From the NCBI GenBank assembly GCA_964370925.1, contig CAYJLH010000004.1:3167-67166 (forward strand): DNA of 64,000 nt, in the 5' to 3' direction. Within the stretch, counting starts at the first letter, position 1. Each line of letters begins with the position of its first letter. Positions 44 through 48,346 of this stretch are shown in pieces. Source of the DNA: an uncultured Oscillospiraceae bacterium (GTDB taxonomy: Bacteria > Bacillota > Clostridia > Oscillospirales > Oscillospiraceae). The notes beneath the pieces are model-generated. The model was not told the origin of the DNA. It saw only the letters and a program-made list of their open reading frames with translations, and searched no databases. Position numbers and translations under genes: made by a program.

Positions 44-298
44 GTATTCGTTAAATGCTGTGAAGAGAAGTAGTATCAAGCTTTTTTGCGTTTCAGAGAG
101 GCGATGTTTGGTGAAAATCGCCCGTAAATACTTGAGAAGTCGTCTCCGAGCTTTGTCGGTGAATTTTATGTAGCCAACAACGTATATTCTGCGTTAAAGA
201 ATTCGAGTGCGGAAATTTTATTTTTCCGAACACAGGTGGTACCACGGTATTTTTTAAAATTATCGCCCTGAGATTTTCTCGGGGCTTTTTTTATTTTT
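44..298 (+). ncRNA. T-box riboswitch leader, valine (GUC) specifier
   Basis: AGAGAG bulge and GGTGAAA distal-loop motif (~95-115). Specifier context GAGAA-GUC-G with GUC at 139-141. T-box core GGTGGTACCACG at 235-246. Terminator GCCCTGAGA/TCTCGGGGC at 265-285 plus T-run. Directly upstream of valS. Confidence 0.85.
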
Positions 299-319: not shown

Positions 320-2941
320 ATGAAAGAACTTCCAAAGATTTACGACCCTAAAGCGGTTGAAAAAAAAATCTATGATATGTGGGTTAAAGGTGGTTATTTT
401 AAGGGCGTTATCGACCCCGAAAAGAAACCTTTTACTATAGTTATCCCACCACCAAATGTCACAGGTCAACTGCATCTTGGACATGCTTTTGACGAGACTA
501 TACAAGACGTTTTAACACGTGTTAAGCGTATGCAAGGCTATTCTGCGCTTTGGATTCCCGGAACTGACCACGCAGGCATAGCAACTCAAATCAAGGTCGA
601 AGAGGAACTTCGTGTTAAAGAGGGAAAAACTCGTTACGACCTCGGACGTGAGGCATTTTTAGAGCGTGTTTGGGATTGGAAGCACAAATACGGTAGCCGT
701 ATTGTCGAACAACTTAAAACTCTTGGTTGCTCATGTGACTGGGATAGAGAGCGCTTTACTATGGACGAGGGTTGCTCAAAAGCTGTGCGCGAAGTTTTTG
801 TTTCACTTTACGAAAAAGGGCTTATTTATAAAGGCAATCGCATTATCAACTGGTGTCCAACTTGCACAACTGCACTTTCTGATGCTGAGGTTAACCACGA
901 AGAAAAACCCGGTAACTTCTGGCACATTAAATATCCAATAAAAGACAGCGACGAATTCTTAATAATTGCCACCACTCGTCCCGAAACTATGCTCGGTGAC
1001 TCCGGTGTCGCTGTTAGCCCCGACGACGAGAGATATGCTCATCTAATCGGCAAAACATGCATACTTCCGCTGATGAACCGTGAAATGCCTATCATCGCCG
1101 ACGAATATGTTGACAAAGAATTTGGTACAGGTTGCGTTAAAATGACACCTTGTCATGACCCTAATGACTTTGAAGTCGGTCAACGTCACAATCTTGAGCA
1201 AATCCTTATCATGGATGAAAACGCTAAGATTATCAACGGCGGAAAATATAACGGCATGGACAGATACGAAGCTCGCCGTGAAATTATAAAAGACCTTGAA
1301 GAACTTGGTTTGTTAGTTAAAATAGAGCCACATAACCACAATGTCGGCACATGCTACCGCTGTGGAACTGTTGTCGAGCCTATCACAAGCCCACAATGGT
1401 TTGTTAAAATGGAACCTCTTGCGAAAGAAGCTATGGAAGTTGTTCGTGACGGGCAGATTAAATTTGTACCTGACCGCTTCGTAAAAACTTATGAAAATTG
1501 GATGGAAAATGCTCATGACTGGTGCATTTCTCGTCAACTTTGGTGGGGACATCGTATCCCTGTTTGGTACTGCTCAGACTGCGACCACATGACAGTTTCT
1601 CGTGAAGATGTCTGCGAATGTGAAAAATGCCAAAGCAAAAATATCGAGCGTGATGAAGATGTTTTGGACACTTGGTTCTCTTCTGCGCTTTGGCCTTTCT
1701 CAACTTTGGGCTGGCCTGATAAAACACCTGATTTAGATTATTTCTACCCAACTGACGTCCTTGTCACAGGTTATGATATTCTATTTTTCTGGGTTGCTCG
1801 TATGATTTTCTCTGCCAATGAGCACACAAAACAAGTGCCTTTCCACACTGTATTTTTCCACGGATTAATCCGTGATGCAGAGGGCAGAAAAATGAGTAAG
1901 AGCCTTGGAAATGGCGTTGACCCACTTGATGTCATCGACACTTACGGCGCTGACGCACTGCGCTTCAACATCATCACAGGCAACAGCCCAGGAAACGACA
2001 TGCGCTATTATAACGAGCGTTGTGAGGCTATGAGAAACTTTGCAAATAAGGTCTTTAATGCTTCTCGTTTCGTTATGATGAACCTTACAATCGAGAAAAA
2101 CGAGCTTCCCGAAAAACTTGAACTTGAGGATAGATGGATTTTATCAAAACTCAATACTCTTGCAAAAGATGTCTGCGACAACTTCGACAAATACGAGCTT
2201 GGAATTGCCGCCGGTAAAATTTATGACTTCATTTGGGACAGCTATTGTGACTGGTATATCGAGCTAATCAAACCACGTCTAAACGGTGACGACAAAGAAC
2301 TAAATCTTTCCGCTCAAAAAGTTATGCTTTATGTTTTGACAGAAATTTTGAAGTTACTACACCCATTTATGCCTTTCATCACAGAGGAAATTTGGCAAGC
2401 ACTCCCCCACGAGGGCGAGGCACTTATGATAGAGCGCTATCCGGAATTCACAGAAAAACTAAACTTCCCACAGGACGAAACTGACTTCGAAACCATCATG
2501 TCTGCTATACGCTCTGTTAGAAGCACACGTGCTGAAATGAATGTTCCTCCATCCAAAAAACCAACTTTGATTATCGTAACAGAGAAAACAGCTGTGTTTG
2601 AAAAAGGCCTAGTTTTCCTATCAAAACTTGCATATGCAGGTAGCGTTGAAATCTCAACAACTGCACCCGAAAGCCTCGACGGAATGGTTAGCGTCGTGAC
2701 TGATGAGGCGAAGATGTTCATGCCAATGGCAGAGCTTGTCGACCTCGACAAGGAGCGTGCGAGAATTCAAAAAGAAATCGAAAAAGCCGAAAAAGAGCTT
2801 GCAATGCAAGAGGGCAAACTGAAAAATGAAAAATTCATTTCAAAAGCGCCCGAGAATATAGTTGCTCAAGAGCGTGAAAAAGCCGAGAAAACAAAAGCAC
2901 TTCTTGAAAACCTCAAAGAGAGCTTAAAAAACCTAGGTTAA
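320..2941 (+). CDS. valS: valyl-tRNA synthetase
   Basis: 873-aa ORF. HIGH-type motif ([13 protein letters not shown]), KMSKS ([10 protein letters not shown]), C-terminal coiled coil. GGAG RBS. Preceded by a Val T-box. Confidence 0.98.
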
Positions 2942-3825: not shown

Positions 3826-4526
3826 CGTCAAACGAAGAGCTAATCCGTGCCGCACAACAGGGCGACAACGACGCTATGGAGGCAGTTGTCACCGAAAACA
3901 CCGGTCTTATTTGGAGTGTTGCTAGGAGGTTTTGCGGTCGTGGTGTTGACCTTGACGACCTCTATCAGCTCGGTTGTGTTGGTTTTATTAAAGCGGTGCA
4001 AGGCTTTGACGAGAGCTATGGCACTCGCTTTTCCACCTATGCTGTGCCAAAAATTTCGGGTGAAATTCGCAGATTTTTGCGAGATGACGGCAGTGTTAAA
4101 GTCAGCCGTGGCATAAAAGAGCGTGCAAATGTTATCCGAACCGCACGAAATGTGCTTGAGCAAAAACTGGGAAGAGAGCCTACAATCTCAGAGATTTCAG
4201 AAGAAACCGGTCTTGATATCGAAGAAATTGCAATCGCCGAAACCGCCACAGGACCGACAGAATCGCTCAACCGTGAAAGCGGCGAGGACGGTTTCACTCT
4301 TGAGCATGTCTTGGGAGATTTTAACCAGGAGGAGCGTATGCTCGAGCGTGTCGCTCTCAAAGAAGCGCTTGCTGTGCTTTCTGAACGGGAACAAATGGTT
4401 ATTTCTTTGAGGTTTTTCCATGGACTTACACAGGATAAGACAGCGAAATCTTTGGGTGTTTCTCAGGTTCAAGTTTCTAGGCTTGAGAGGAAGGCTTTGG
4501 TGGCATTACGGGAGTTTTTGGAGTAA
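3822..4526 (+). CDS. sigF: sporulation sigma factor F
   Basis: 234-aa sigma-70 family (FSTYAVPKISGEIRRFLRD; TQDKTAKSLGVSQVQVSRLERKAL). Overlaps the spoIIAB stop. Operon context. Confidence 0.9.
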   Translation: MTSNEELIRAAQQGDNDAMEAVVTENTGLIWSVARRFCGRGVDLDDLYQLGCVGFIKAVQGFDESYGTRFSTYAVPKISGEIRRFLRDDGSVKVSRGIKERANVIRTARNVLEQKLGREPTISEISEETGLDIEEIAIAETATGPTESLNRESGEDGFTLEHVLGDFNQEERMLERVALKEALAVLSEREQMVISLRFFHGLTQDKTAKSLGVSQVQVSRLERKALVALREFLE

Positions 4527-4556
4527 TTTTATCTATGCAAGAACGTGTCTCCGACG

Positions 4557-4584
4557 GTATACTTTTTGAAACCAAAAAGTATAC
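4557..4584. repeat. left terminal 28-nt palindrome (12-bp stem, loop AAAC)
   Basis: GTATACTTTTTG AAAC CAAAAAGTATAC. Confidence 0.9.
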
Positions 4585-4981
4585 AAAAAGTTTCGGGGGT
4601 TTCGTCCCCCGAGCGCCGAAGAGGCGGAAAGGGTGCTGAGAAAGCCACAAAAAAAGTTTGCAAACCCAGAAGCAGTTGCAAACGCACGAAAATATTCATA
4701 ATCCACGGCTATCGCCGCCTCAGCCCGCATCTACTCACTTGCAAAACTTAAAAAGAAAAGCGTATCTTTTTGCGAACTAAATCCCAAGTACAGGCTGACC
4801 TTGCGACTTGTCGCAAATGCGGGGGTATTCCAAAAGGGGGTCAGGCGACCCCCTTTGGTCGCTGGGGTGAGGATTTTTAAGGAGAGGGGAATCACGAAAT
4901 TCCCTCTCCTTAAACGTGTCTTTGCTTACTTTCTGCTCGTACAGAAAGTAAGTCATCGAAGATTATCCTCTACTAATATTT

Positions 4982-5009
4982 GTATACTTTTTGGTTTCAA
5001 AAAGTATAC
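4982..5009. repeat. right terminal 28-nt palindrome (12-bp stem, loop GTTT), exact reverse complement of 4557-4584
   Basis: GTATACTTTTTG GTTT CAAAAAGTATAC. Confidence 0.9.
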
Positions 5010-5050
5010 CCACGGAGTGAACTATTTCAATATCATAAAAAAGGATAAAT

Positions 5051-6682
5051 TCAATTACCTTGTTTCTCTAACGCCGCTCCAACAAGCCCCAAAAACAAAG
5101 GATGCGGATTATTCGGTCTGGTTTTAAACTCAGGATGAAATTGCACTGCCACAAAATAGCTATGCTCTTTTATTTCAACGGCTTCAACTAAACTTCCATC
5201 GGGCGATAAACCTGAAATCAAAAGTCCTTTTTCCGCCATCACTTCCCTATATGAATTATTAAACTCATATCTGTGTCTGTGTCGCTCTGAAATGCTCTTT
5301 TTCGCATACAGTTCCCTCATTTTGCTGTTGTCTTGCAACTCACAAGGGAAAGCTCCAAGGCGCATTGTGCCACCTTTTTCGTTAATATTTATCTGTTCCT
5401 CCATTATGTGAACAACGGGATGCGGCGATATTTCGTCAAATTCTGTCGAATGTGCTTTGTCAAGTTTACATACATTTCTAGCGAATTCAATCGCAGCAAC
5501 TTGCATCCCAAGACAAATCCCAAGAAAAGGCAAATCATTTTCTCTCGCATATTTGCAAGCAGAAATCATGCCCTCAACTCCCCTGTCACCAAAGCCACCG
5601 GGGAGTACCATTCCGTCAACGTCGCCAAGCTCTTCGGCGACATTTTTTTCTGTCAAAAATTCGCTGTCGACCCACTTAATTTCTATTTCTGCACCCTTAC
5701 CATAACCTGCGTGCTCAAGTGCTTCATTGACTGAAAAATACGCGTCGTGGAACTGAACATATTTCCCAACCATCGCAATTCTAACCTGTCTTTTTCGATT
5801 TGCGATTTTTTGGAGCATCTCTTTCCACTCCCTTAAATCACAGTCGTTAGCTTCGATTTCAAACTCACGGCAAACAACCTCATCCAAACCTTTTTCATGT
5901 AGCATTATCGGCGCTTCGTAAAGACATGGAAGAGTATAATTTTCTATGACGCAGTCGGGTTTTACATTGCAAAACATAGATATTTTTTGGAGAATACTGG
6001 GGTTAATCGGCTCGTCAGCTCTCGCTACGATTATGTCAGGTGAAATACCTATAGAGCGCAGTTCTTTGACCGAGTGTTGAGTTGGTTTCGACTTATGTTC
6101 TCCACCGCCTTTTAGATATGGAACTAGGGTCACATGGATAAAAAGACAGTTCGTTTTTCCAACTTCAAGTGCAACTTGTCTTATAGTCTCTAAAAACGGT
6201 TGGCACTCGATATCACCTGTCGTCCCACCTATTTCGGTAATTAAAACATCCGCTCCACTTTGCTCTGCACCGGCATAAATGAACTTTTTAATTTCGTTTG
6301 TAATATGCGGAATTACTTGAACAGTTTGCCCTAAATACCCACCTTTTCTTTCACGACTGAGAACATTATCATAAACTTTTCCCGAAGTCAAATTTGAAAG
6401 TTTTGATAGATTTTCATCTATAAAACGCTCATAATGCCCCAAATCAAGGTCAGTTTCAGCACCGTCATCAGTTACATAAACTTCGCCATGTTGAAATGGA
6501 CTCATAGTTCCGGGGTCAATGTTCATATAAGGGTCGAGTTTTTGAGCTGTCACTTTTAAGCCTCTTTGCTTCAAAAGTCTGCCCAAACTCGCTGCCGTAA
6601 TTCCTTTGCCCAAACCAGAAACAACACCGCCGGTTACAAATATAAATTTAGTATTTCTCTGCTTATTATCACTTGTTTTCAT
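5051..6682 (-). CDS. pyrG: CTP synthase
   Basis: 543 aa. [17 protein letters not shown]-terminus. C-terminal glutamine amidotransferase ([15 protein letters not shown]). Confidence 0.97.
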
Positions 6683-7250
6683 ACAATTTTAAAATCCCCT
6701 CTGCTATTGCTCGCCTTGTCGACCGTGAATCCATCGCCTGTCTTTCTATATACTTGTGTGCCTCCTGCTCGGACATGCTCAAATAAGAAACAAGCACATG
6801 TTTCGCCCTGTCGACTATCCTAATATCTTCAATTTTTTGTACTAACTTTTGGTTTTCTTTTTGCATTTGCGACATTCTTCTATGTGCTGCCCTCGCAAGT
6901 TTTAATGAAAACCAGAACATATTTTTATTTATCGGTTTGGCAACAGTTATAACTCCATAATCTTCAACCAATTCCGATATTTCTTCATAATGCTCACTTT
7001 TTACGATTAATATAACAGTGCTTTTACTTTGTGTTGCAATGAAAGTCGAAAGTTTCTCACCTGATTCGTCTTTCATCGGCGCATTGATAACAACTAAGTC
7101 GAAATCCTGTCCTTGAATTAACCGTCTAGCCTCTGAACCGCTGGTGACAGTCACTATTCTTTCAAGTGAAAAATCTTTCAATGTGTCACTCACAAAAGCT
7201 GTTCCCTTTTCAAATCCGGATACTATAAGAGCCGTTTCAATAACTTCCAC
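6669..7250 (-). CDS. ANTAR-domain RNA-binding antiterminator with pseudo-receiver domain
   Basis: C-terminal ANTAR pattern ([43 protein letters not shown]). The receiver-like N-terminus has Asn at the acceptor position (DLVVINAPM) and no DD pair. Located downstream of glnA. Confidence 0.85.
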
Positions 7251-30462: not shown

Positions 30463-32268
30463 TTATTTATATTCGCTAAGTCCCAAACGCTCAAGAGTTG
30501 CCTCTGTTGGGAAAGCAGAATCCCAACCACGTACGTCATAATATTGTGGAAGAGTTACAGGTAGTTCACTAATCATACCCTTAGATGGGCCGTCTGGGAT
30601 AACTTCTTCAAGCAAACGCTTAGGAAGCTTATCGTCCTCGGGTTTCATGCCTGCGTGCTTATTAAATTGGCGCTCAATATTATAAATACGCTCACCAACT
30701 TCAAGCAATTGCTCCGGTGTGTAAGTTGTGCCTGTTGCAGCATTTAAAAGACCTGCATATTGTGGCGCACCCATAGCAAATGATGAGAACAAGCAAAGTC
30801 CCATGCTGTCAATAACAGCAGTTAGGTCTTGGAATATTTTACACCAAGTTGCTTTGCCCTCTGTTGCTGTGCGGTCTAGTTGCTCAGGAAGTCCTAGAAC
30901 CTCTGGGGAAATTAGATATCCACGAACATGGCAACCGCCACGGTTACTTGTTGCATAAGTTATGCCAATTCCTTGAATAGCACGTGGGTCATATGCTGGA
31001 AGCTCTTGCTTCTTAACGCTCATTGAAACTTCTGGATGACCATAATGCTCACAAAGTCTAAAGCTACCGTCAGCCATTAGTTTTGCAAGTGGAATTTTTC
31101 CTTCACCCATGCGCTTTGTCCACTCGATGATAGCTTCTGAACTACCCCAAGCTAGTGGAACACCCTCACATTCCTCTTCCTTGATTGCGCCGATTTGGTA
31201 AAGTTCCATAGCCGCAGCGATAGTACAAGGAGTTGAAATCGCATCGAGTCCGTATTCATTACACCAGTAGTTTGCCTCATTGATAGCAGTAAGGTCACTG
31301 ATATTACAGTTACCGCCGTATGCCCATAGTGGCTCATACTCAGGGCCACCAGTGACTTTTCCGTCGATTTCAATCATACGACCGCAACCCATAGGACAGC
31401 GATGGCAGAAACTTTGCTTTACAAGGTGTTTTTCTCTTAATGTTTCTCCCGATGTCTCGTCAGCCGGTGGGAAATATGCTTCTTGCCAGTTACGAGTTGG
31501 GAAAGCTCCTGTGTTATTGATAATGTTAACCAGAACAGCTGTACCATAAGTTGGTAGACCCTGACCGGTAACACCGTTTTCACGAATTAGTTTCATGCTC
31601 TCAGCTGTTACCGCTTTCAAAGCGTCAGCATCAGCTGGTTTAATAACTGTACGTGATGCACTTACTGTGATAGCCTTAAAATTCTTGCTACCCATAACCG
31701 CACCAACACCACTACGACCTGCCGCACGGTGCTTATCATTCATGATACATGCAAGCAGTGATAGATTTTCACCTGATGGGCCAATGTTCAAAACTGCACA
31801 CTTTGGATAAATTTCTTTCAATTTATCGTCAATGTGTTCGCTCATCATGCCCATATAGGGACTTGCGTCCAAAAGTTCAATCTTATCGTCCTCAATGTTG
31901 AGGTAAACAGGTTTTTCTGATTTTCCCTCGACAATAATTCCGTCATAACCTGCATATTTAAGTTTTGCACCCCAAACACCACCTGAGTTTGATGACGCAA
32001 TCATGCCTGTTAGCGGTGATTTTGTCACAACCATGTATCTACCGGCTGTTGGTGAAGCTGTTCCTGTCATTGGACCTGCTAGGAACACCAATTTGTTTTG
32101 TGGGCTTAGTGGTTCAACAGTTGCGACACCCTCATCCATCAAAATTTTTGTACCCAATCCACGACCGCCAATAAACTTTATAGCATCGTCTAAGTTTAGG
32201 TCTTCAACTTTGATAGCGCCCTCTGTTAGGTTAACACGAATAATTTTTCCGCAATATGATGTTGACAT
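30463..32268 (-). CDS. aor: aldehyde:ferredoxin oxidoreductase (tungstopterin enzyme family)
   Basis: AOR pattern (GKIIRVNLT...GGRGLG..., CHRCPMGCGR Fe-S motif, YATSNRGGCH). Start at ATG 32268 after GAGGAGGA. ORF-track extension to 32394 rejected. Confidence 0.93.
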   Translation of the reverse strand: MSTSYCGKIIRVNLTEGAIKVEDLNLDDAIKFIGGRGLGTKILMDEGVATVEPLSPQNKLVFLAGPMTGTASPTAGRYMVVTKSPLTGMIASSNSGGVWGAKLKYAGYDGIIVEGKSEKPVYLNIEDDKIELLDASPYMGMMSEHIDDKLKEIYPKCAVLNIGPSGENLSLLACIMNDKHRAAGRSGVGAVMGSKNFKAITVSASRTVIKPADADALKAVTAESMKLIRENGVTGQGLPTYGTAVLVNIINNTGAFPTRNWQEAYFPPADETSGETLREKHLVKQSFCHRCPMGCGRMIEIDGKVTGGPEYEPLWAYGGNCNISDLTAINEANYWCNEYGLDAISTPCTIAAAMELYQIGAIKEEECEGVPLAWGSSEAIIEWTKRMGEGKIPLAKLMADGSFRLCEHYGHPEVSMSVKKQELPAYDPRAIQGIGITYATSNRGGCHVRGYLISPEVLGLPEQLDRTATEGKATWCKIFQDLTAVIDSMGLCLFSSFAMGAPQYAGLLNAATGTTYTPEQLLEVGERIYNIERQFNKHAGMKPEDDKLPKRLLEEVIPDGPSKGMISELPVTLPQYYDVRGWDSAFPTEATLERLGLSEYK

Positions 32269-32313
32269 AAAAAAATCCTCCTCATTTTTGAATAATATTT
32301 CGATTTTACGTAA

Positions 32314-32390
32314 AAATAAGCACGCAAAACCAAAATCCTTTCCAAATACGGGAGGCATCACAATTACGGCGGATACCCTTAGGCTTATTT
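32314..32390 (-). ncRNA. candidate Moco/Wco (molybdenum/tungsten cofactor) riboswitch aptamer
   Basis: RNA: AAAUAAGC-CUAAGGGUAUCCGCCGUAAUUGUGAUGCCUCCCGUAUUUGGAAAGGAUUUUGGUUUUGCGU-GCUUAUUU. It has an 8-bp closing helix and an internal GGUAUC/GAUGCC helix. GCCUCCC and GGAAAGG strings match my memory of the Moco motif. Located in the AOR 5' UTR. Confidence 0.5.
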
Positions 32391-32421
32391 CCATATCAAA
32401 TAAGCTCGGATTTATAGTACT

Positions 32422-32450
32422 ATATTACCATAATTCAAATCGACTGTCAA
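32422..32450 (-). promoter_or_regulatory. promoter of the riboswitch-aor-moaD unit
   Basis: Minus strand: TTGACA (32450-32445), 17 nt, TAATAT (32427-32422). A second TTGACA lies 8 nt upstream. Confidence 0.55.
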
Positions 32451-32472: not shown

Positions 32473-32512
32473 AAAAAGGACCATGGGAATGTTTAGTTAA
32501 CCTCCCATGGTC
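32473..32512 (-). terminator. terminator of the ECF operon (overlaps the stop of its last gene)
   Basis: GACCATGGGA-14 nt-TCCCATGGTC (10-bp stem) followed on the minus strand by CTTTTTATACTTTTTT. Confidence 0.7.
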
Positions 32513-33411
32513 ATATGATTTACCAAAAATCTCCTGTAAAATTCCTCTCTAATCTGAAAACTACCAATCATTTTAAGTTCCGACCTCGTAATAGGGATAT
32601 TAAACCTATTATCTGCGCCAATTTCTGTCACGCTAAGTCTTATATCTTTGAAAGCAAACAAGTCCTCCGCCAGCGAATAAACACCGTCCATTTCATCGAA
32701 AAATGAAAAAAGTTGCGCCCTTGAATATGCTAGATTTTTGACTTCAAGTTCCTCTTTCGTATCGCTGTTCCAAAAAAGTTCTTCTTTGACCTCAGCATAA
32801 AAAGCAGTAGCCCTTTCTAGCATATCTTCCTCAGTTCGTCTGCGTTTGCACATTTCAGAAATTTCAAGTTTGTACATTTCTTCGATACGTTTTCCGCAAA
32901 TTCCACGCATAGTAAAAGTGCGAATTAGCAAAGCACATGTCCGCTTTTTCCAGTCTGTAAAACTTGGATTATATGTGGCGGCAAATGCAATGATTTTTCC
33001 GCAATCTTCTGCGATATCGCCCTCCGAAATGTGGCTTTCGAAGTCAATTCCGACACAAATTTCGTCTTTTTCACTGAAAATATAGTTGCGTAAATTGTTA
33101 TCAACACGCAGTTTACCAGTCGCTTTGTGGTATTCTAGTAACCACTCCGCGAGTGCTATTGCGTGTTTTTCCTCCATATTTTCCACTAATTCGGAGTATA
33201 AAATTCCGTCGATATGCTTGTAACAGAGCATGTTTTCTGATGTCGAAACCAAGCTTGGAACTGCAACTTTTTTTGACTGTAAAAGGGCAATCATAGCCTT
33301 TTCACGTTCAAAATCCTCTGTATTTTTGAAAAGTTTTTTTACAATTTCCCCATCACCCCTTACAGTATTTCTTTTGGAAATAAAGGTGATTTCAGTGGAA
33401 TTTTCTTGCAT
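32497..33411 (-). CDS. hypothetical protein with protein-kinase/APH-like N-terminal fold (tentative)
   Basis: 304 aa. IVKKLF...EREKAMIALL...YKHIDG...RVDNNLRNYIF...VGIDFE resembles the Lys/Glu/catalytic-loop/DFG-like order of small kinases. TAATG overlap with the upstream gene. Confidence 0.4.
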   Translation of the reverse strand: MQENSTEITFISKRNTVRGDGEIVKKLFKNTEDFEREKAMIALLQSKKVAVPSLVSTSENMLCYKHIDGILYSELVENMEEKHAIALAEWLLEYHKATGKLRVDNNLRNYIFSEKDEICVGIDFESHISEGDIAEDCGKIIAFAATYNPSFTDWKKRTCALLIRTFTMRGICGKRIEEMYKLEISEMCKRRRTEEDMLERATAFYAEVKEELFWNSDTKEELEVKNLAYSRAQLFSFFDEMDGVYSLAEDLFAFKDIRLSVTEIGADNRFNIPITRSELKMIGSFQIREEFYRRFLVNHMTMGG

Positions 33412-34175
33412 TATTTCAAGCCTCCACGCTTAAAGCTAATCTCAATATCTCCGTCCTCAGTATAGCCGTTTAGCTCTTTAACTACAGACAAAACAGCATT
33501 TTTTAAGAGATTTTCGACAAACGGAACCATTTCAATGTTATGACCATCGACCTTTAGCTCAATACTTGGCTTTTTCAGTACGCAATCCTCGGCTGTCGCC
33601 TGTTTTTTCAAGATTTTACCTGTCAATTCCCTACATGTACAGCCACACGCATCACAACATTTCGGATCCATATTCGGCATAGGTGAAATCGCATGTTGCA
33701 TGACAAATTGAACGAGTTTTTCAGGCTCGTCAAGAGCATGAATTACGGGATAATCACCAAAACTTTTTCTCCCATCATTTGCCAAAACACCCGAAACTCC
33801 GACCACTCTTTCGTCAAGTCTCTCCAAAACTTCTTGCTCAGTGTGAGCCGTCAAAATTCTGGGGACATTGAGGTCCGTAACTCCCTCTAAAATCACATAA
33901 TCATGGTCATAGTGTCGCAAAATATCCTCAATCGGTAGCATGGTTTGGTACAGAACATCTGTCTCAAACATTCCTCTCGCTGTGACTAATTGCGAGCCTG
34001 CATTTTTATGACGGTTAGTATTTGAGTCCTCCACAGGGTCAATTTTAAAAAGTTCGAAGTGTATTTCTTTAACCGAGCCGACAGAAAACCCAAGCTTTCT
34101 AAGTCCGCTGATAATCGTCTCGCACACAGTTGTTTTTCCAGACTTTGTAATGCCATTAACTGCAATAACTTTCAT
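33411..34175 (-). CDS. MobB-like P-loop protein with Cys-rich C-terminal extension
   Basis: MKVIAVNGITKSGKTT...VGSVKEIHFE...NRHKNAGS resembles MobB. Extra domain with CCDACGCTC. Confidence 0.65.
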   Translation of the reverse strand: MKVIAVNGITKSGKTTVCETIISGLRKLGFSVGSVKEIHFELFKIDPVEDSNTNRHKNAGSQLVTARGMFETDVLYQTMLPIEDILRHYDHDYVILEGVTDLNVPRILTAHTEQEVLERLDERVVGVSGVLANDGRKSFGDYPVIHALDEPEKLVQFVMQHAISPMPNMDPKCCDACGCTCRELTGKILKKQATAEDCVLKKPSIELKVDGHNIEMVPFVENLLKNAVLSVVKELNGYTEDGDIEISFKRGGLK

Positions 34176-34187
34176 AATTTTTCCTCC

Positions 34188-34916
34188 CTATCCATAGTAA
34201 AAAATCATAGTCGTAGCCGAAATTGCGAGCAATAAAACTATGGCGACAACATCAATTCCAACCATTTTTACTTCTATAAAACTCGTGCGTTTTTTCATTG
34301 CACCAAAACCTCTAGCCTCCATTGCCATTGCCAAATCCTGTGATTTTATAACAGCGTCGGCAACAACAGGCGAGAGTAAATATCCGTATAATTTTATCCT
34401 TTTTCCGAAGGGAATTTTTTCAACTTCAATCCCTCTAAGTTGAATTGAAACCATTGCATCTGTAAAACTTTCCATAAAAAATGGAATAAATCTTAGCGTC
34501 AACATAATCATAAATGAAAAAGTATAAGGCACATGCAATTTTGAAAGCGAGGCTATAACCCGCCTGCTGTTTTCACTTTCCATGATTGCCGCTGAGGAAA
34601 TCAATGTAAAAAATCGAAGTCCCATGGTCACACCACGCAAAAATCCGTCGGTGTAAATAATTACGAATTCCCCGTATGAAAGCAGTGGTTCACCCGACCT
34701 TACAAATATAATTTGAATCACGCAAACTCCGATTAATATGTTTATAAAGCGTTTTAATTTGTTAAAAAGGAATTTGTAATTCGCCCCAAAAAGTAGCATT
34801 AACACAAAGGAAAACACGGCAATTCCGAGCAAATACAGCCAATCTTTGAACAAAATCGACATTGATGTCGTTAACAAAATCCCAAGCAGTTTTACCCGTG
34901 GGTCAGCATTTTTCAT
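34188..34916 (-). CDS. ecfT: ECF transporter transmembrane (T) component
   Basis: 242 aa, CbiQ/EcfT-like multi-TM protein with ARG motif (AMAMEARGFG). Follows two ECF-type ATPases. Confidence 0.85.
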   Translation of the reverse strand: MKNADPRVKLLGILLTTSMSILFKDWLYLLGIAVFSFVLMLLFGANYKFLFNKLKRFINILIGVCVIQIIFVRSGEPLLSYGEFVIIYTDGFLRGVTMGLRFFTLISSAAIMESENSRRVIASLSKLHVPYTFSFMIMLTLRFIPFFMESFTDAMVSIQLRGIEVEKIPFGKRIKLYGYLLSPVVADAVIKSQDLAMAMEARGFGAMKKRTSFIEVKMVGIDVVAIVLLLAISATTMIFYYG

Positions 34917-35574
34917 TTACAATTCCTCCTTTCGACACTTTGACAATGCGTGCCTCAGGAAAGCGAGAAAAAAGCTCCGTATCATGGGAAATCACAGCAA
35001 TTCCAAGTCCTGATTTCACAAGCTCATCCATAATCGTGTATAAGGTTTTGCGGTTTGCCACATCTAAGCCTGTTGTAGGCTCGTCAAGCATGAGATATTT
35101 GATGTCTTGCATAAGAATTGAGGCAAGCGCAAGCCTTTGTTTTTCGCCACGACTGAGACGATATGTGCTTCGTTTTGCCAGATGTTTTAGTGAAAATCTG
35201 TCCAAAAGTTCTATGGCTTTTTTTGCGATTTCATCGGGGTTTTGGTCTAAAACCGAACCTATAAATGTCATCTCATCCCAGACTGTTGCCGTAAAAATCT
35301 GCTTTGACGGCTCTTGAAAAAGGTAGCCTACATATTTTCCCATTTGCCCAAGAGTGAAGTTTGTTGCGTCATTTCCAAAAACCGTATGCCCCATGCCCTC
35401 ACATTTTAAAATCCCTGCACAGAGCTTCAAAAGAGTTGATTTTCCGCTTCCGTTATTCCCCTCAACAAGACAAATTTCGCCTGTTTTCAAGGTGAATTCT
35501 TCGGCAGTAAATCTAAAAGCGTTTCTTGGATACTGAAAGGAAATATTTTTAAGTGTGATTGCATGTTCACTCAT
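34903..35574 (-). CDS. ecfA: ECF transporter ATPase component
   Basis: Walker A GNNGSGKST, signature LSRGEKQRLALA, Walker B LMLDEPT. Confidence 0.9.
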   Translation of the reverse strand: MSEHAITLKNISFQYPRNAFRFTAEEFTLKTGEICLVEGNNGSGKSTLLKLCAGILKCEGMGHTVFGNDATNFTLGQMGKYVGYLFQEPSKQIFTATVWDEMTFIGSVLDQNPDEIAKKAIELLDRFSLKHLAKRSTYRLSRGEKQRLALASILMQDIKYLMLDEPTTGLDVANRKTLYTIMDELVKSGLGIAVISHDTELFSRFPEARIVKVSKGGIVNEKC

Positions 35575-36263
35575 AAACTCTCTCCTCCGCTCCCCTTTTG
35601 TGCCACAAGTTTTCCATCAATAAATGCATAAATTTTATCAGCAATAAACAGATTTTCCTCGTCGTGTTCGACCATCAAAATTGCTTTCCCACGCTTTTTC
35701 AGCTCGACTATACAATCCATAATCCTTGCTGTTGCCTCCCTGTCGAGCTGGCTTAAAGCCTCGTCGAACAATAGCACCTGTGGGTCTAGCGTTAAAACTG
35801 CCCCCAAGGCAACAAGCTGTTTTTGGCCACCCGAAAGACGTGTAGGACTGTGAAATCTATAGTCCTCCATGCCGACAATTTTTAGAGCTTCATCAATTCT
35901 TTTTGCGATTTCTTCCCTCGGTAAACCTATGTTTTCAGGACCAAAAGCGAGTTCATCCTCAACCGTAGGTGCAAAAAGTTGTGCATCAGGATTTTGGAAA
36001 ACTATGCCGACTTGTCGCACAACTTCATGCAACGGCATTTCGGCTACAGCCTTACCCGAAAGTAGTGCTTCGCCCTTTAATTCGCCCTCTATACTCCTCG
36101 GAATTAGCCCCGCTAATATCAGACAAAGTGTTGATTTTCCGCAACCTGATGGCCCTGTAATCGCAACACATTCACCCGAATTTATAGATAGATTTGCACC
36201 GCTTATAAGTGGATTTTGCCCTAGGTAGGAGAAGAAAATCTCCCTTGCTTCAAGCTGTATCAT
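35571..36263 (-). CDS. ecfA: ECF transporter ATPase component (second)
   Basis: Walker A GPSGCGKST, LSGGQKQLVALG, LLFDEAL. Start at ATG 36263 (ATGA overlap with the upstream stop). Confidence 0.9.
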   Translation of the reverse strand: MIQLEAREIFFSYLGQNPLISGANLSINSGECVAITGPSGCGKSTLCLILAGLIPRSIEGELKGEALLSGKAVAEMPLHEVVRQVGIVFQNPDAQLFAPTVEDELAFGPENIGLPREEIAKRIDEALKIVGMEDYRFHSPTRLSGGQKQLVALGAVLTLDPQVLLFDEALSQLDREATARIMDCIVELKKRGKAILMVEHDEENLFIADKIYAFIDGKLVAQKGSGGESL

Positions 36264-36793
36264 TGTATCACAACTTCCTGTACAAATTTGCACCAACGCT
36301 GTGAAAATTCTGAGCTTTTTATAATCATTAGGTATGGCCCCATGCCACCCTCTGATTTTGGTTTTAACGGTTCATCATCCATCGCAAGGCAGATATAAAC
36401 ATTATCCTCCGTCATGATTTCCTCTTTTGTCAGCGCTGAGGTATAACCGTCAAGTGAGCGCACTTCTATAGTTTCACTCGAAATTTCCATATCCGCAAAT
36501 TCGAAAACATCCTTTAATTCAACGCCCGAAAAACTAACATCAGTCGGGTCTGTATTGCTCGTATCCATAACCGCAGAAACGGGTACAGGGTTAAGTGACA
36601 ACATGTCATCCATAGTGATTTGAACCGTTGTTTCACCTGATTTTAGCTCAAAAACCGCATTCATTTCAAGCTCTTTTTTGTAGCTGACATCGCCGGCATT
36701 TAGCCTTGAAAAAATTGTAATCATAATAACAAGCACTGCAATGATTACAAGCAATATTTTTGCCTGATTATTAACATTTTTCTTGTATTCCAT
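36260..36793 (-). CDS. membrane-anchored exported protein with one YedY/sulfite-oxidase-like molybdopterin-binding-type module
   Basis: N-terminal TM. FSGVELKDVF..IEVRSLDGYTSALTKEEI..YICLAMDDEPL..GPYLMIIKSSEFSQRWCKFVQEVVI. Confidence 0.5.
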   Translation of the reverse strand: MEYKKNVNNQAKILLVIIAVLVIMITIFSRLNAGDVSYKKELEMNAVFELKSGETTVQITMDDMLSLNPVPVSAVMDTSNTDPTDVSFSGVELKDVFEFADMEISSETIEVRSLDGYTSALTKEEIMTEDNVYICLAMDDEPLKPKSEGGMGPYLMIIKSSEFSQRWCKFVQEVVIQ

Positions 36794-38287: not shown

Positions 38288-38918
38288 TGGTTTCCTCCAA
38301 CTCTTTGGGCATAGGTACTGAAAAACCATTGCCTTTTTGTTTTTCATCTTTTGTGATTTGTCTGCCTTGCAAAATCCCGAGGCGTCTTACGTTAGAGCCG
38401 ATTGAATGTGCAACCAAACCACCCAAACCGCCAGATAGTGCAGATGCAGTTAGTGATAGCATCAATGGAACAAAAGATAGGTTGAAAATCGCAAGATTCA
38501 CCGAAAAGCTACCTGCCATGTTGGCAACAACTCCGCCAAGAAAACAGCAAATCGCACAATCTGCCCTGTGCCTCATAATCAAATATAAAAGGTCAATTGC
38601 AATTCCGGGCATGGTGTAAGTTAGAATACTCGCCGCACCATGAGAGCCAAGCGCGCCTGTTAGTGTAACAACCGCACCTTGTATCAAAGCAACGACAAAA
38701 GCCGTTCCCCATTTTCCTGTAATGCTCTCCCCCAACACAAGGAAAGCCATATAAAAACCGCCTGCAACCACACCGCCGGGTATAAAAAGTGGCCCTGTGA
38801 TGATTTGTGCAAGCGGAACAATAATCGCCTTAATTGCTATGCCCATAGCAGCAACCATGGACATAATGCAGTAATCTGCCAGTGTGAAATATGGTCTTTT
38901 TATTTTCAAGAGTAACAC
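38271..38918 (-). CDS. ECF transporter substrate-specific (S) component-like membrane protein, unknown specificity
   Basis: ~6 hydrophobic helices, Gly/Ala-rich (PLFIPGGVVAGGFYMAFLV). Located inside the ECF operon. The true start is possibly TTG 38909. Confidence 0.55.
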   Translation of the reverse strand: MLLLKIKRPYFTLADYCIMSMVAAMGIAIKAIIVPLAQIITGPLFIPGGVVAGGFYMAFLVLGESITGKWGTAFVVALIQGAVVTLTGALGSHGAASILTYTMPGIAIDLLYLIMRHRADCAICCFLGGVVANMAGSFSVNLAIFNLSFVPLMLSLTASALSGGLGGLVAHSIGSNVRRLGILQGRQITKDEKQKGNGFSVPMPKELEETSEKEN

Positions 38919-38929
38919 TCCTTTTCACT

Positions 38930-38961
38930 ATTAGGGCAGATGCATCTGCACCTACCCTAAT
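38930..38961 (-). other. intercistronic stem-loop between the lipoprotein and S-component genes
   Basis: ATTAGGG...CCCTAAT enclosing the palindrome CAGATGCATCTG. No U-run. Confidence 0.35.
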
Positions 38962-38994
38962 AAAATAACTCGTCATCTTGTAGTATTACAAGAA

Positions 38995-47752: not shown

Positions 47753-47818
47753 TCATAAAATCCCCCTTTACAATCACGTGACCATGTGATATAATCATAG
47801 CATAAAGGTGGTGAGGCA

Positions 47819-48346
47819 ATGATAAGACTGCCGGGAACGATTATCGAAACCGAAGAAAACAACGCAAGACAGGTTTTCACTTCCATTTTTTCAACGGGTG
47901 GTGTAACACTTTCACAGGTCTGCAATATAACCGAACTTGAAACATATGTCATTCAAAACTGGGTAAAGAGGGGATATATCGCGTCTCCTACGAACAAAAA
48001 GTATGATGTTAATCAGCTTTGTCGAATTATTATCGTCAATATTTTGAAAGATGTATTTTCAATTGAGCAAGTATGCGGAATTTTGGAAGCCGCTTCTCGT
48101 TGCCCCGATGTCGACGACAGTAAGCTTTATTTTCTGTTCGTGGATGTAGTCTTTTTTTCAAAATCAAGCATGTCTAATTTTGAAAATGCCATTGCTGAGA
48201 TAAAACCTAAGCTCGGTAACAGCAAGGCTTATGAAAAACACCTATGCGCAATTTTGAAAATTATGTTCACCGCTTATGTTTCAAAAAAGCACAAACAAGA
48301 TGCATTATCACAATACAAATCACTGGGAATTTCAGAGAAAGGGTGA
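47819..48346 (+). CDS. DUF1836-like protein (from memory)
   Basis: TLSQVCNITELETYVIQNWVKRGYIASPTNKKYDVNQLCRIIIVNILKDVFSIEQV matches my recollection of the family pattern. Confidence 0.45.
   Translation: MIRLPGTIIETEENNARQVFTSIFSTGGVTLSQVCNITELETYVIQNWVKRGYIASPTNKKYDVNQLCRIIIVNILKDVFSIEQVCGILEAASRCPDVDDSKLYFLFVDVVFFSKSSMSNFENAIAEIKPKLGNSKAYEKHLCAILKIMFTAYVSKKHKQDALSQYKSLGISEKG

Follow-up and report, generated by a model that had tools for sequence, protein, structure and literature searches.

The window analysed here, 64,000 nucleotides (nt) of contig CAYJLH010000004.1 from an uncultured Oscillospiraceae bacterium, contains a spacer crowded with hairpins between the convergent genes sigF and pyrG, and the question raised by this locus is what kind of element fills it. 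At 524 nt the spacer exceeds every other gap in the window's crude gene map; sigF ends at position 4526 and pyrG at 5051, and the 3' ends of both genes face it. A preliminary description of this DNA had pictured a hairpin-dense non-coding element of 469 bp bounded by inverted copies of a 28-nt palindrome, and had left three options for it: a mobile element of a MITE-like (miniature inverted-repeat transposable element) or PATE-like (palindrome-associated transposable element) kind, an invertible segment (inverton), or a large structured RNA. Our analysis favours a modified form of the first. The spacer is probably one copy, diverged and in part decayed, of a non-autonomous DNA repeat that is palindromic and non-coding, belongs to an uncatalogued family of Oscillospiraceae-type Clostridia and resembles both MITEs and REPINs (doublets of repetitive extragenic palindromic, or REP, sequences that form hairpins). 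We class it with the dispersed palindromic repeats, a known kind of element, in preference to a MITE or REPIN in the strict sense, a novel RNA or a demonstrated switch.

The inverted repeat and the hairpin density were both confirmed. The two outer arms (Table 1) are 39 nt long, complementary at 37 of 39 positions (95%) and separated by 391 nt. Each carries a perfect 12-4-12 palindrome, GTATACTTTTTG-N4-CAAAAAGTATAC, whose loop is AAAC in the left arm and GTTT in the right one; the two copies are thus truly inverted. The 12-mer half-site has four exact occurrences in the window, all within the element, and five when up to one mismatch is allowed, against a mean of 0.64 in shuffled sequences. 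All the interior stems of the preliminary description were present, together with one more (Table 1). Eight perfect hairpins with a stem of at least 7 bp fall in positions 4501-5000, a density unmatched elsewhere in the window, as every other of the 128 bins of 500 nt holds three at most; five of the 18 hairpins of the window with stems of at least 10 bp also lie in the element. Relative to shuffles, the whole element folds with z-scores of -11.6 (plus strand) and -13.0 (minus strand), and its interior by itself with -5.3 and -6.8. The G+C content, 45.4% in the element and 47.8% in its interior, exceeds that of the window (about 40% on average), of pyrG and of the other spacers (21-44%) but not that of sigF (46-51%); the earlier claim that it is raised over the neighbouring genes thus holds for pyrG only. 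The sequence AACGTGTCT does occur twice as described, at 4542-4550 and 4913-4921, each one base away from where it had been placed. Only the second copy lies inside the match of the covariance model presented below, aligned to the linker beside hairpin A; the first is outside the left arm. The terminal hairpins lack U-tracts, as previously stated.

Direct searches with the element were negative, yet homologues were found through a reading frame of 59 amino acids (aa) on its minus strand. BLASTn comparison with plasmid and phage collections revealed no similarity, and no second copy was found in the window by blastn-short or by the covariance model. The exact 28-mer had no occurrence in 185,579 species genomes or in viral contigs. 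A slightly relaxed pattern retrieved two metagenome sites, L006 and L007: L006 was discarded as a chance match inside a gene, and L007, which shares the palindrome, the A-run following it and the G-rich hairpin, is a distant family member with 28 bits over hairpins A and B. Searches of Rfam 15, with the whole window at gathering score and with the region at E<=10, gave only chance matches here, and none of the element and 20 family loci matched a family at gathering score (best 26 bits versus a cut-off of 218); the only Rfam hits in the 20 loci were thiamine pyrophosphate riboswitches lying outside the elements. A sensitive search with the 59-aa frame returned two relatives, P0241 and P0242, of 38 and 101 aa. 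The 101-aa relative is encoded on L010, a 618-bp contig from the Hadza gut, whose DNA aligns to the minus strand of the window over three consecutive hairpins (A-B-C) with compensatory changes in the stems: CTTACTTTCTG/CAGAAAGTAAG in the window against GTGACTTTCTG/CAGAAAGTCAC in L010, AAGGAGAGGG/CCCTCTCCTT against CAGGGAGAGGG/CCCTCTCCCTG, and GGGGGTC/GACCCCC against GGGGGATC/GATCCCCC. The linker CCTCACCC is conserved between the two. In L010 the family element is broken after about 220 nt, and the remaining segment (about 400-618) shows repeated TGGACA motifs and the start of a helix-turn-helix-like open reading frame (ORF; VKYTKEERLDIGRRIY...), which looks like an insertion sequence (IS) inserted into the repeat.

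Since the reading frames of these relatives have unequal lengths (38, 59 and 101 aa) and the changes in the stems are paired, the conserved feature is the structure and not a protein. No Pfam match was obtained for the ORFs in the element. These ORFs had been said to lack ribosome-binding sites. Two of them do have Shine-Dalgarno-like motifs, namely GAGGA 9 nt upstream of the 59-aa frame (4956->4780) and AAGGAGAGGG 6 nt before the GTG start of a 54-aa frame, but both motifs are hairpin arms and the frames are not conserved. The annotated 59-aa protein P0243 is spurious and not a gene. The same artefact has led to the 38-aa and 101-aa proteins in other assemblies and to clusters of spurious ORFs over family copies.

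A core pattern, GAGAGGG N8-16 CCCTCTC N6-13 CCTCACCC, was run on the species-genome collection and matched 108 genome sites, and 27 loci in 11 metagenome-assembled genomes (MAGs) of Clostridia share the whole module. Exact-pattern copies numbered 5, 4, 2, 6 and 4 in five single MAGs. The member MAGs are labelled Oscillospiraceae, Clostridiales, Eubacteriales, Pseudoflavonifractor and Pelethomonas, plus one Bacteroidaceae. The latter, CAVFGM01, holds four copies of the Oscillospiraceae-type repeat (L021, L071, L099 and L117), which suggests a binning or taxonomy problem with its label. The remaining pattern sites correspond to unrelated G+C-rich repeats of Proteobacteria and others.

The family unit is about 150 nt long and is composed of the flank CGCTCCGCGGGG, hairpin A, CAAAGA, hairpin B, AACCCTCACCC, hairpin C and often a hairpin D. 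Its conserved 5' flank can be written CTCCG(C/T)GG(G), hairpin A has 11-12 bp, the CCTCACCC motif is placed between hairpins B and C, and hairpin C is terminator-like. Full elements consist of two modules joined tail-to-tail with their 5' ends outward and measure about 420-480 bp (419-477 bp seen); in this arrangement the flank and hairpin A become the terminal inverted repeat of the doublet. Locus L014, for example, has two full-length inverted matches about 70 nt apart, 6757-6911 (+) and 6980-7131 (-). The long members show dyad symmetry over the whole element, with terminal repeats of 63-87 nt at 75-84% identity. Doublets include L014, L026, L040, L068 and L072, and singlets L017, L020, L046, L096 and L102. 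A doublet contains two module types: in type 1 hairpin B is GGGAGAGGG/CCCTCTCCC, and in type 2 it is GGGGCGGGG/CCCCGCCCC and hairpin A is often CATACTTTCTG/CAGAAAGTATG. The sequence of hairpin A varies among members (GTGAC/GTCAC, CATAC/GTATG, TCCAT/ATGGA). A covariance model, R1, built from 19 family modules with the window left out, recognized 41 strong module copies in the 27 loci. The modules stand in either orientation relative to their neighbours, and their contexts are mixed as far as crude and unreliable ORF maps tell.

Two further loci have unusual family sequences. In L097 two facing modules, 2215-2367 (+) and 4231-4387 (-), lie 1.86 kb apart with three ORFs between them; they may be either a composite unit or a doublet that an insertion has split. 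A family doublet compared by BLASTn gave nothing against plasmids and, against phages, a 60-nt end fragment holding an isolated hairpin A. This fragment (L119, 3343-3402, flank plus hairpin A) lies between two ORFs of MT838697.1, a human faecal scaffold with the unverified label 'Bacteriophage sp.', and is probably a bacterial fragment.

Read against this family, the 469-bp element is a doublet made up of a decayed type 2 module on the left, an intact type 1 module on the right and an extra type 2 5'-end fragment (Table 1). According to model R1 the intact module is the only full copy in the 64 kb. It aligns with L010 and with the family and has all the ordered parts, with a degenerate 5' flank of its own (CTTCGATGA); the intact CTCCG flank is found on the two outer arms and not on this module. 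In the decayed module hairpin A is the left 28-mer, followed by the linker CAAAAAG, the shortened hairpin B and a degenerate 3' part that includes the hairpin at 4656-4683. For the left arm, the matching family end is CGCTCCGCGGG with hairpin A. The right arm lies outside the intact module and is near-identical to the family end CACTCCGTGGGCATACTTTCTG...GTATGCAAAG of loci L057 and L063: on the minus strand it reads TCACTCCGTGGGTATACTTTTTG...GTATACAAAT, and the type 2 end of L057/L063 reads TCACTCCGTGGGCATACTTTCTG...GTATGCAAAG. Both 28-mers match hairpin A of the model, so the palindrome is a regular part of the family module and not the special boundary site that it had been taken for. The high identity of the arms resembles that of within-genome copies of one subfamily and need not mean that they work as a pair.

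Table 1. Features of the sigF-pyrG spacer in window positions (minus-strand parts of modules are written in their own 5' to 3' direction)
Feature	Position	Strand	Description
Whole sigF-pyrG spacer	4527..5050	.	Essentially the repeat element and its remnants; gene map, spacer G+C
Left arm	4549..4587	+	5' end of the left module: flank CTCCGACGG, hairpin A, AAA
Decayed type 2-like module	4552..4682	+	21.6 bits and E 3.7e-7 with model R1 run unfiltered; model positions 1-151
Left 28-nt palindrome, hairpin A	4557..4584	.	Model positions 7-34, E 0.0035
Interior stem; truncated hairpin B of the left module	4593..4612	-	7 bp; terminator-like with T-run; hairpin scan, model match
Interior stem	4656-4683		8 bp
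Central spacer between modules	4683..4806	.	Hairpin 4750-4771; TTGCAAAA/TTTTTGCGAA motifs resembling the family spacer
Interior stem	4750-4771		7 bp; additional to the stems of the preliminary description
59-aa frame, P0243	4780..4956	-	Protein annotation of the source record; not a gene, the frame passes through hairpins A, B and C
Interior stem; hairpin D	4816-4801	-	7 bp, 2-nt centre; straddles the 3' end of the intact module
Intact type 1 module	4807..4958	-	Model R1: 120.4 bits, E 8e-36, model positions 1-151
Interior stem	4833-4856		10 bp perfect; 12 bp with one bulge over 4830-4858
Hairpin C of the intact module	4858-4830	-
CCTCACCC of the intact module	4865-4872	-	Plus-strand GGGTGAGG
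Interior stem; hairpin B of the intact module	4914-4876	-	13 bp
Linker CAAAGA of the intact module	4924-4919	-
Interior stem; hairpin A of the intact module	4952-4925	-	11 bp
Right arm	4979..5017	-	Extra isolated type 2 5'-end fragment: flank CACTCCGTGGG, hairpin A 5009-4982, CAAAT
Promoter-like TTGAAA-16-TATACT	5003..5030	-	Overlaps the right arm; not significant

The hairpins covary strongly across the family. Over 38 modules, 98.0% of the cells were paired and both sides had changed in 20 of the 24 pairs (158 cells). None of 500 shuffles reached the observed value, and partners slid out of register paired at 50-62%. G-U pairs made up 6 of 868 cells and A-C-type mismatches were about as frequent, so the stems are kept Watson-Crick on both strands with neither strand favoured. 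Pairing of this kind is unusual for an RNA selected on one strand and points to DNA palindromes, for which it is expected, be they hairpins recognised by a protein or transposase or quasi-palindromes corrected by template switching.

The behaviour of the copies also speaks of DNA repeats. L057 and L063 come from different contigs of one MAG and their flanks are unrelated; over 419 nt their identity is 99.05%. Among the six copies of MAG RGIG6097 the likeness is mostly 81-95%, except for the divergent L042, only about 75% like the others, and in general within-genome copies resemble each other more than they resemble copies from other genomes. Two independent pairs of related genomes (loci L014/L068 and L053/L072) each show one flank conserved at 91-97%, an inverted interior and an unrelated second flank. 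A flipped interior with a swapped flank would be the product expected when the terminal repeats of two copies recombine.

The window copy itself sits exactly at a break of synteny. To its left, on the plus strand, are a T-box, valS, spoIIAA, spoIIAB and sigF, and to its right, on the minus strand, pyrG, an ANTAR regulator and glnA. In L002, the closest relative found (valS 95% and sigF 88% identical), trkA starts 4 nt after sigF and the element is absent; in relatives at 79-80% identity pcrA comes after sigF. On the other side, the best non-self relatives of pyrG (76%) have an aminotransferase following pyrG and retain the upstream glnA-ANTAR arrangement, and in L009 purF and dapF are inserted within a kept glnA-ANTAR ... 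pyrG order. The compared loci of the relatives thus lack the element, both gene ends have different neighbours in more distant relatives, and the break separates the valS-spoIIA-sigF block from the glnA-ANTAR-pyrG block. L001, considered for a time as the closest pyrG relative and an empty site, was dropped; it is only 62-74% identical and its score was inflated by an internal duplication. Its CTP synthase (P0002, 6001-7989) has 662 aa, with residues from about 37 to 190 duplicated.

These observations are best explained by a non-autonomous element acting at the DNA level, whose palindromes keep to strict Watson-Crick pairing. An enzyme provided in trans would duplicate or homogenise the copies within a genome; one candidate is a transposase that recognises the ends by their hairpins, on the model of MITEs and REPINs, and gene conversion may contribute. 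If the left terminal repeat of one copy recombined with the right one of a second copy, the interior would be flipped and a flank exchanged in a single step. Recombination between copies would rearrange the chromosome and so explain the position of the window copy at a synteny break. Locally, the element would probably serve only as the 3' spacer or terminator region of two convergent genes, with hairpin C and the stem 4612-4593 as possible terminators. A more specific proposal is a REPIN-like system of Clostridia with unusually large multi-hairpin units, in which a single-copy HUH/Y1-type or other transposase would recognise the CTCCGYGG flank plus hairpin A as a single-stranded DNA hairpin, and whose copies would be inherited vertically, homogenised and act as inversion hot spots, perhaps also co-opted as bidirectional terminators between genes; we advance it tentatively and give it a low probability.

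Several observations weigh against a mobile repeat. The identical tract of L057 and L063 stops inside the terminal repeats, which makes gene conversion at least as likely as fresh transposition. Several copies occupy orthologous loci in different species-level MAGs at about 90-94% identity; they are therefore long-lived, and this is compatible with a host function too. Target-site duplications were found neither at the window arms, where no direct repeat abuts, nor at the family ends, whose exact termini cannot be fixed. Neither a transposase nor an autonomous relative was found beside any family copy, the neighbours being ordinary genes; clustering of the ORFs around the 27 loci yielded these and, over the element itself, spurious ORFs. 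A parent IS sharing its ends was not found, and the 64-kb window has a single element locus. The conserved unpaired sequences CAAAGA and CCTCACCC could be RNA- or protein-binding sites. Of the three options, a MITE- or PATE-like element is the best supported, the window copy joining at E 8e-36 a multi-copy, non-coding family with inverted repeats, but with no target-site duplication and no parent IS found it is at most a putative MITE in the strict sense.

Two other readings have to be weighed against that of a dispersed palindromic repeat. The spacer could encode a structured RNA, as a minus-strand 3' extension of the pyrG transcript or as a transcript started at 5030-5003, that acts as a 3'-end stabiliser, a terminator or a protein-binding small RNA, its spread being secondary. 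The very strong covariation of hairpins A and B, the conserved unpaired motifs, a G+C-rich spacer in a genome of 40% G+C, the resemblance of hairpin C to a weak bidirectional terminator and the persistence of copies at orthologous loci are all consistent with it, and in the ORF listing, inspected by eye, the module often comes shortly after the stop codon of a co-oriented ORF, although the crude gene map gave mixed contexts. However, G-U pairs are as rare as A-C-type mismatches and neither strand is favoured, the palindromic doublets stand in either orientation to their neighbours, copies are homogenised within a genome and no Rfam family matches. The promoter and terminator signals are at chance frequency as well: the promoter scan gave one site versus 1.3 expected from shuffles, with no significant internal promoter, and the sole consensus intrinsic-terminator-like site is 4612-4593 on the minus strand, with a T-run after the stem. 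A reading of GTATA as a sigma-F/G/E promoter gave no fit by eye and was abandoned. The large structured RNA of the preliminary description is thus weakened, and we regard it as unlikely. The inverton reading supposes that a site-specific recombinase acts at the two 12-4-12 palindromes and flips the 391-bp interior, swapping for instance a minus-strand terminator between the sigF and pyrG transcripts. The 28-bp palindrome with its asymmetric, inverted centre resembles a recombinase core site, and may be likened to the crossover sites of small serine recombinases (res site I; hix, which is 12-2-12) or to 11-6-11 dif-type sites. The near-identity of the arms (37/39), the strand-specificity of the only consensus terminator and the opposite orientation of family elements relative to a conserved flank in related genomes would fit as well. 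Yet the gene map of the window, made of 50 ORFs of at least 100 aa, includes no recombinase or transposase, the one promoter-like site does not exceed chance, and no regulated 5' gene end is adjacent as both neighbours end here. In addition, hairpin A covaries freely across the family, unlike a conserved recombinase site, the exact 28-mer is absent from the species genomes searched, and both observed flips accompany a changed distal flank, which recombination between copies explains better. An inverton is therefore very unlikely. The free covariation of hairpin A is also the reason why two operators for one repressor were discarded.

A decayed spacer devoid of function, or an artefact of assembly that joined two organisms into a chimera, would place the element where synteny with the relatives stops on both sides, as observed, and would agree with a best non-self pyrG relative at only 76% when that of valS reaches 95%. 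The full-length family match (E 8e-36) already refutes a chance spacer, however, and no other bin of the window comes near the hairpin density of the element. Tetranucleotide usage in the left 4.5 kb shows a correlation of r = 0.90 with the rest, inside the 0.88-0.97 spanned by other chunks, and the right side retains the glnA-ANTAR ... pyrG order of L009. We find this explanation scarcely credible. A replication terminus with a dif site was rejected too, as the GC skew merely tracks gene orientation; the 28-mer is presumably unlike known dif sites.

Elsewhere in the window, the T-box leader (51-273, plus strand) lies immediately 5' of valS (320-2941), and a riboswitch of the molybdenum/tungsten cofactor type (32319-32423, minus strand) directly 5' of an aldehyde:ferredoxin oxidoreductase gene (30463-32394, minus strand). 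The riboswitch adjoins a cluster of molybdopterin genes and an energy-coupling factor-type transporter (CbiQ plus ABC ATPase) at 32497-36793. Two other long spacers, 38348-38994 (647 nt, G+C 0.44) and 47753-48275 (523 nt, G+C 0.38), have neither a family module nor a hairpin cluster, and no tRNA or tmRNA was found. Among the unrelated repeats retrieved with the core pattern, GGGAGAGGGAGAAGGAATTCTCCCTCTCCCCGGACCCCTCACCC plus a second hairpin was seen on the Muricoccus radiodurans chromosome (L013, L050, L051, L056, L080, L082, L083, L092 and L113), that is, at least nine times in one Acetobacteraceae chromosome, and also in Roseomonas (L027, L037, L111 and L115). A cluster of GGGAGAGGG/CCCTCTCCC hairpins beside the same gene end was common to many Sphingomonas species (L018, L022, L033, L078, L094, L104, L108 and L077) and is unrelated to the Oscillospiraceae-type family.

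Among known elements, the BOX repeats of Streptococcus pneumoniae are modular (boxA-boxB-boxC), and bacterial interspersed mosaic elements (BIMEs) occur in enterobacteria. The family seems to share with them a few conserved sub-elements in variable composition, with truncated or extra modules as in the window copy, and a strong structure, and no mobilising enzyme is known for them either, but there is no sequence relation, and BOX modules are arranged head-to-tail instead of as tail-to-tail inverted doublets. REPINs are doublets of REP sequences that form hairpins and are mobilised by RAYT (REP-associated tyrosine) Y1 transposases (PMC3337134; PMC2817692). As in REP sequences and REPINs, the palindromic unit of the family has a conserved 5' flank and appears as singlets and as inverted doublets with a spacer (PMC3337134), compensatory change keeps the hairpins as the sequence drifts, the families are genome-specific and the location is intergenic. 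Target-site duplications are not expected for REPINs, and none was found in the family. The sizes differ, with units of about 150 nt and three or four hairpins versus 20-40 nt for REP, and doublets of about 420-480 bp, whose two modules are only about 66-84% complementary, versus about 90-150 bp for REPINs. A handful of copies per MAG (at most six with the exact pattern) contrasts with hundreds for REPINs, no RAYT (Y1 HUH transposase) is linked to the family or present in the 64-kb window, and the hosts are Clostridia and not Proteobacteria.

The resemblance to MITEs such as Correia, ERIC/RU-1, RUP and QMITE (PMC10969869, PMC3184786) lies in a length below 600 bp, the lack of coding capacity, terminal inverted repeats, a stable predicted fold, multiple intergenic copies, an association with genome rearrangement and the possibility of supplying terminators. 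The window copy, with 469 bp, no coding capacity and 39-nt terminal repeats at 95%, conforms to this description. Unlike for MITEs, neither direct repeats or target-site duplications nor a parent IS with matching ends were found for the family; its terminal repeats are 60-90 nt long with a perfect hairpin, and the element is G+C-rich relative to the host instead of A+T-rich. Invertons (PMC5903667, PMC11602134), more than 75% of which are shorter than 300 bases in the catalogue (PMC11602134), similarly have a few hundred bp between inverted repeats, and palindromic arms with an asymmetric centre, whereas the present element has no promoter, nearby recombinase or adjacent regulated 5' end, and its arms belong to a dispersed repeat family.

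What was an unannotatable spacer is now an identifiable repeat, and model R1 together with the core pattern can be used to mask or annotate it in MAGs of gut and rumen Oscillospiraceae, where family copies generate false small ORFs. The element may also break or mis-join assemblies. To our knowledge, dispersed palindromic repeats are well studied in Proteobacteria and hardly at all in gut Clostridia. With its Watson-Crick-only compensation, its near-identical copies within a genome and its flipped copies at synteny breakpoints, this family offers a handle on genome rearrangement in these bacteria and on the enzyme that mobilises the repeats.

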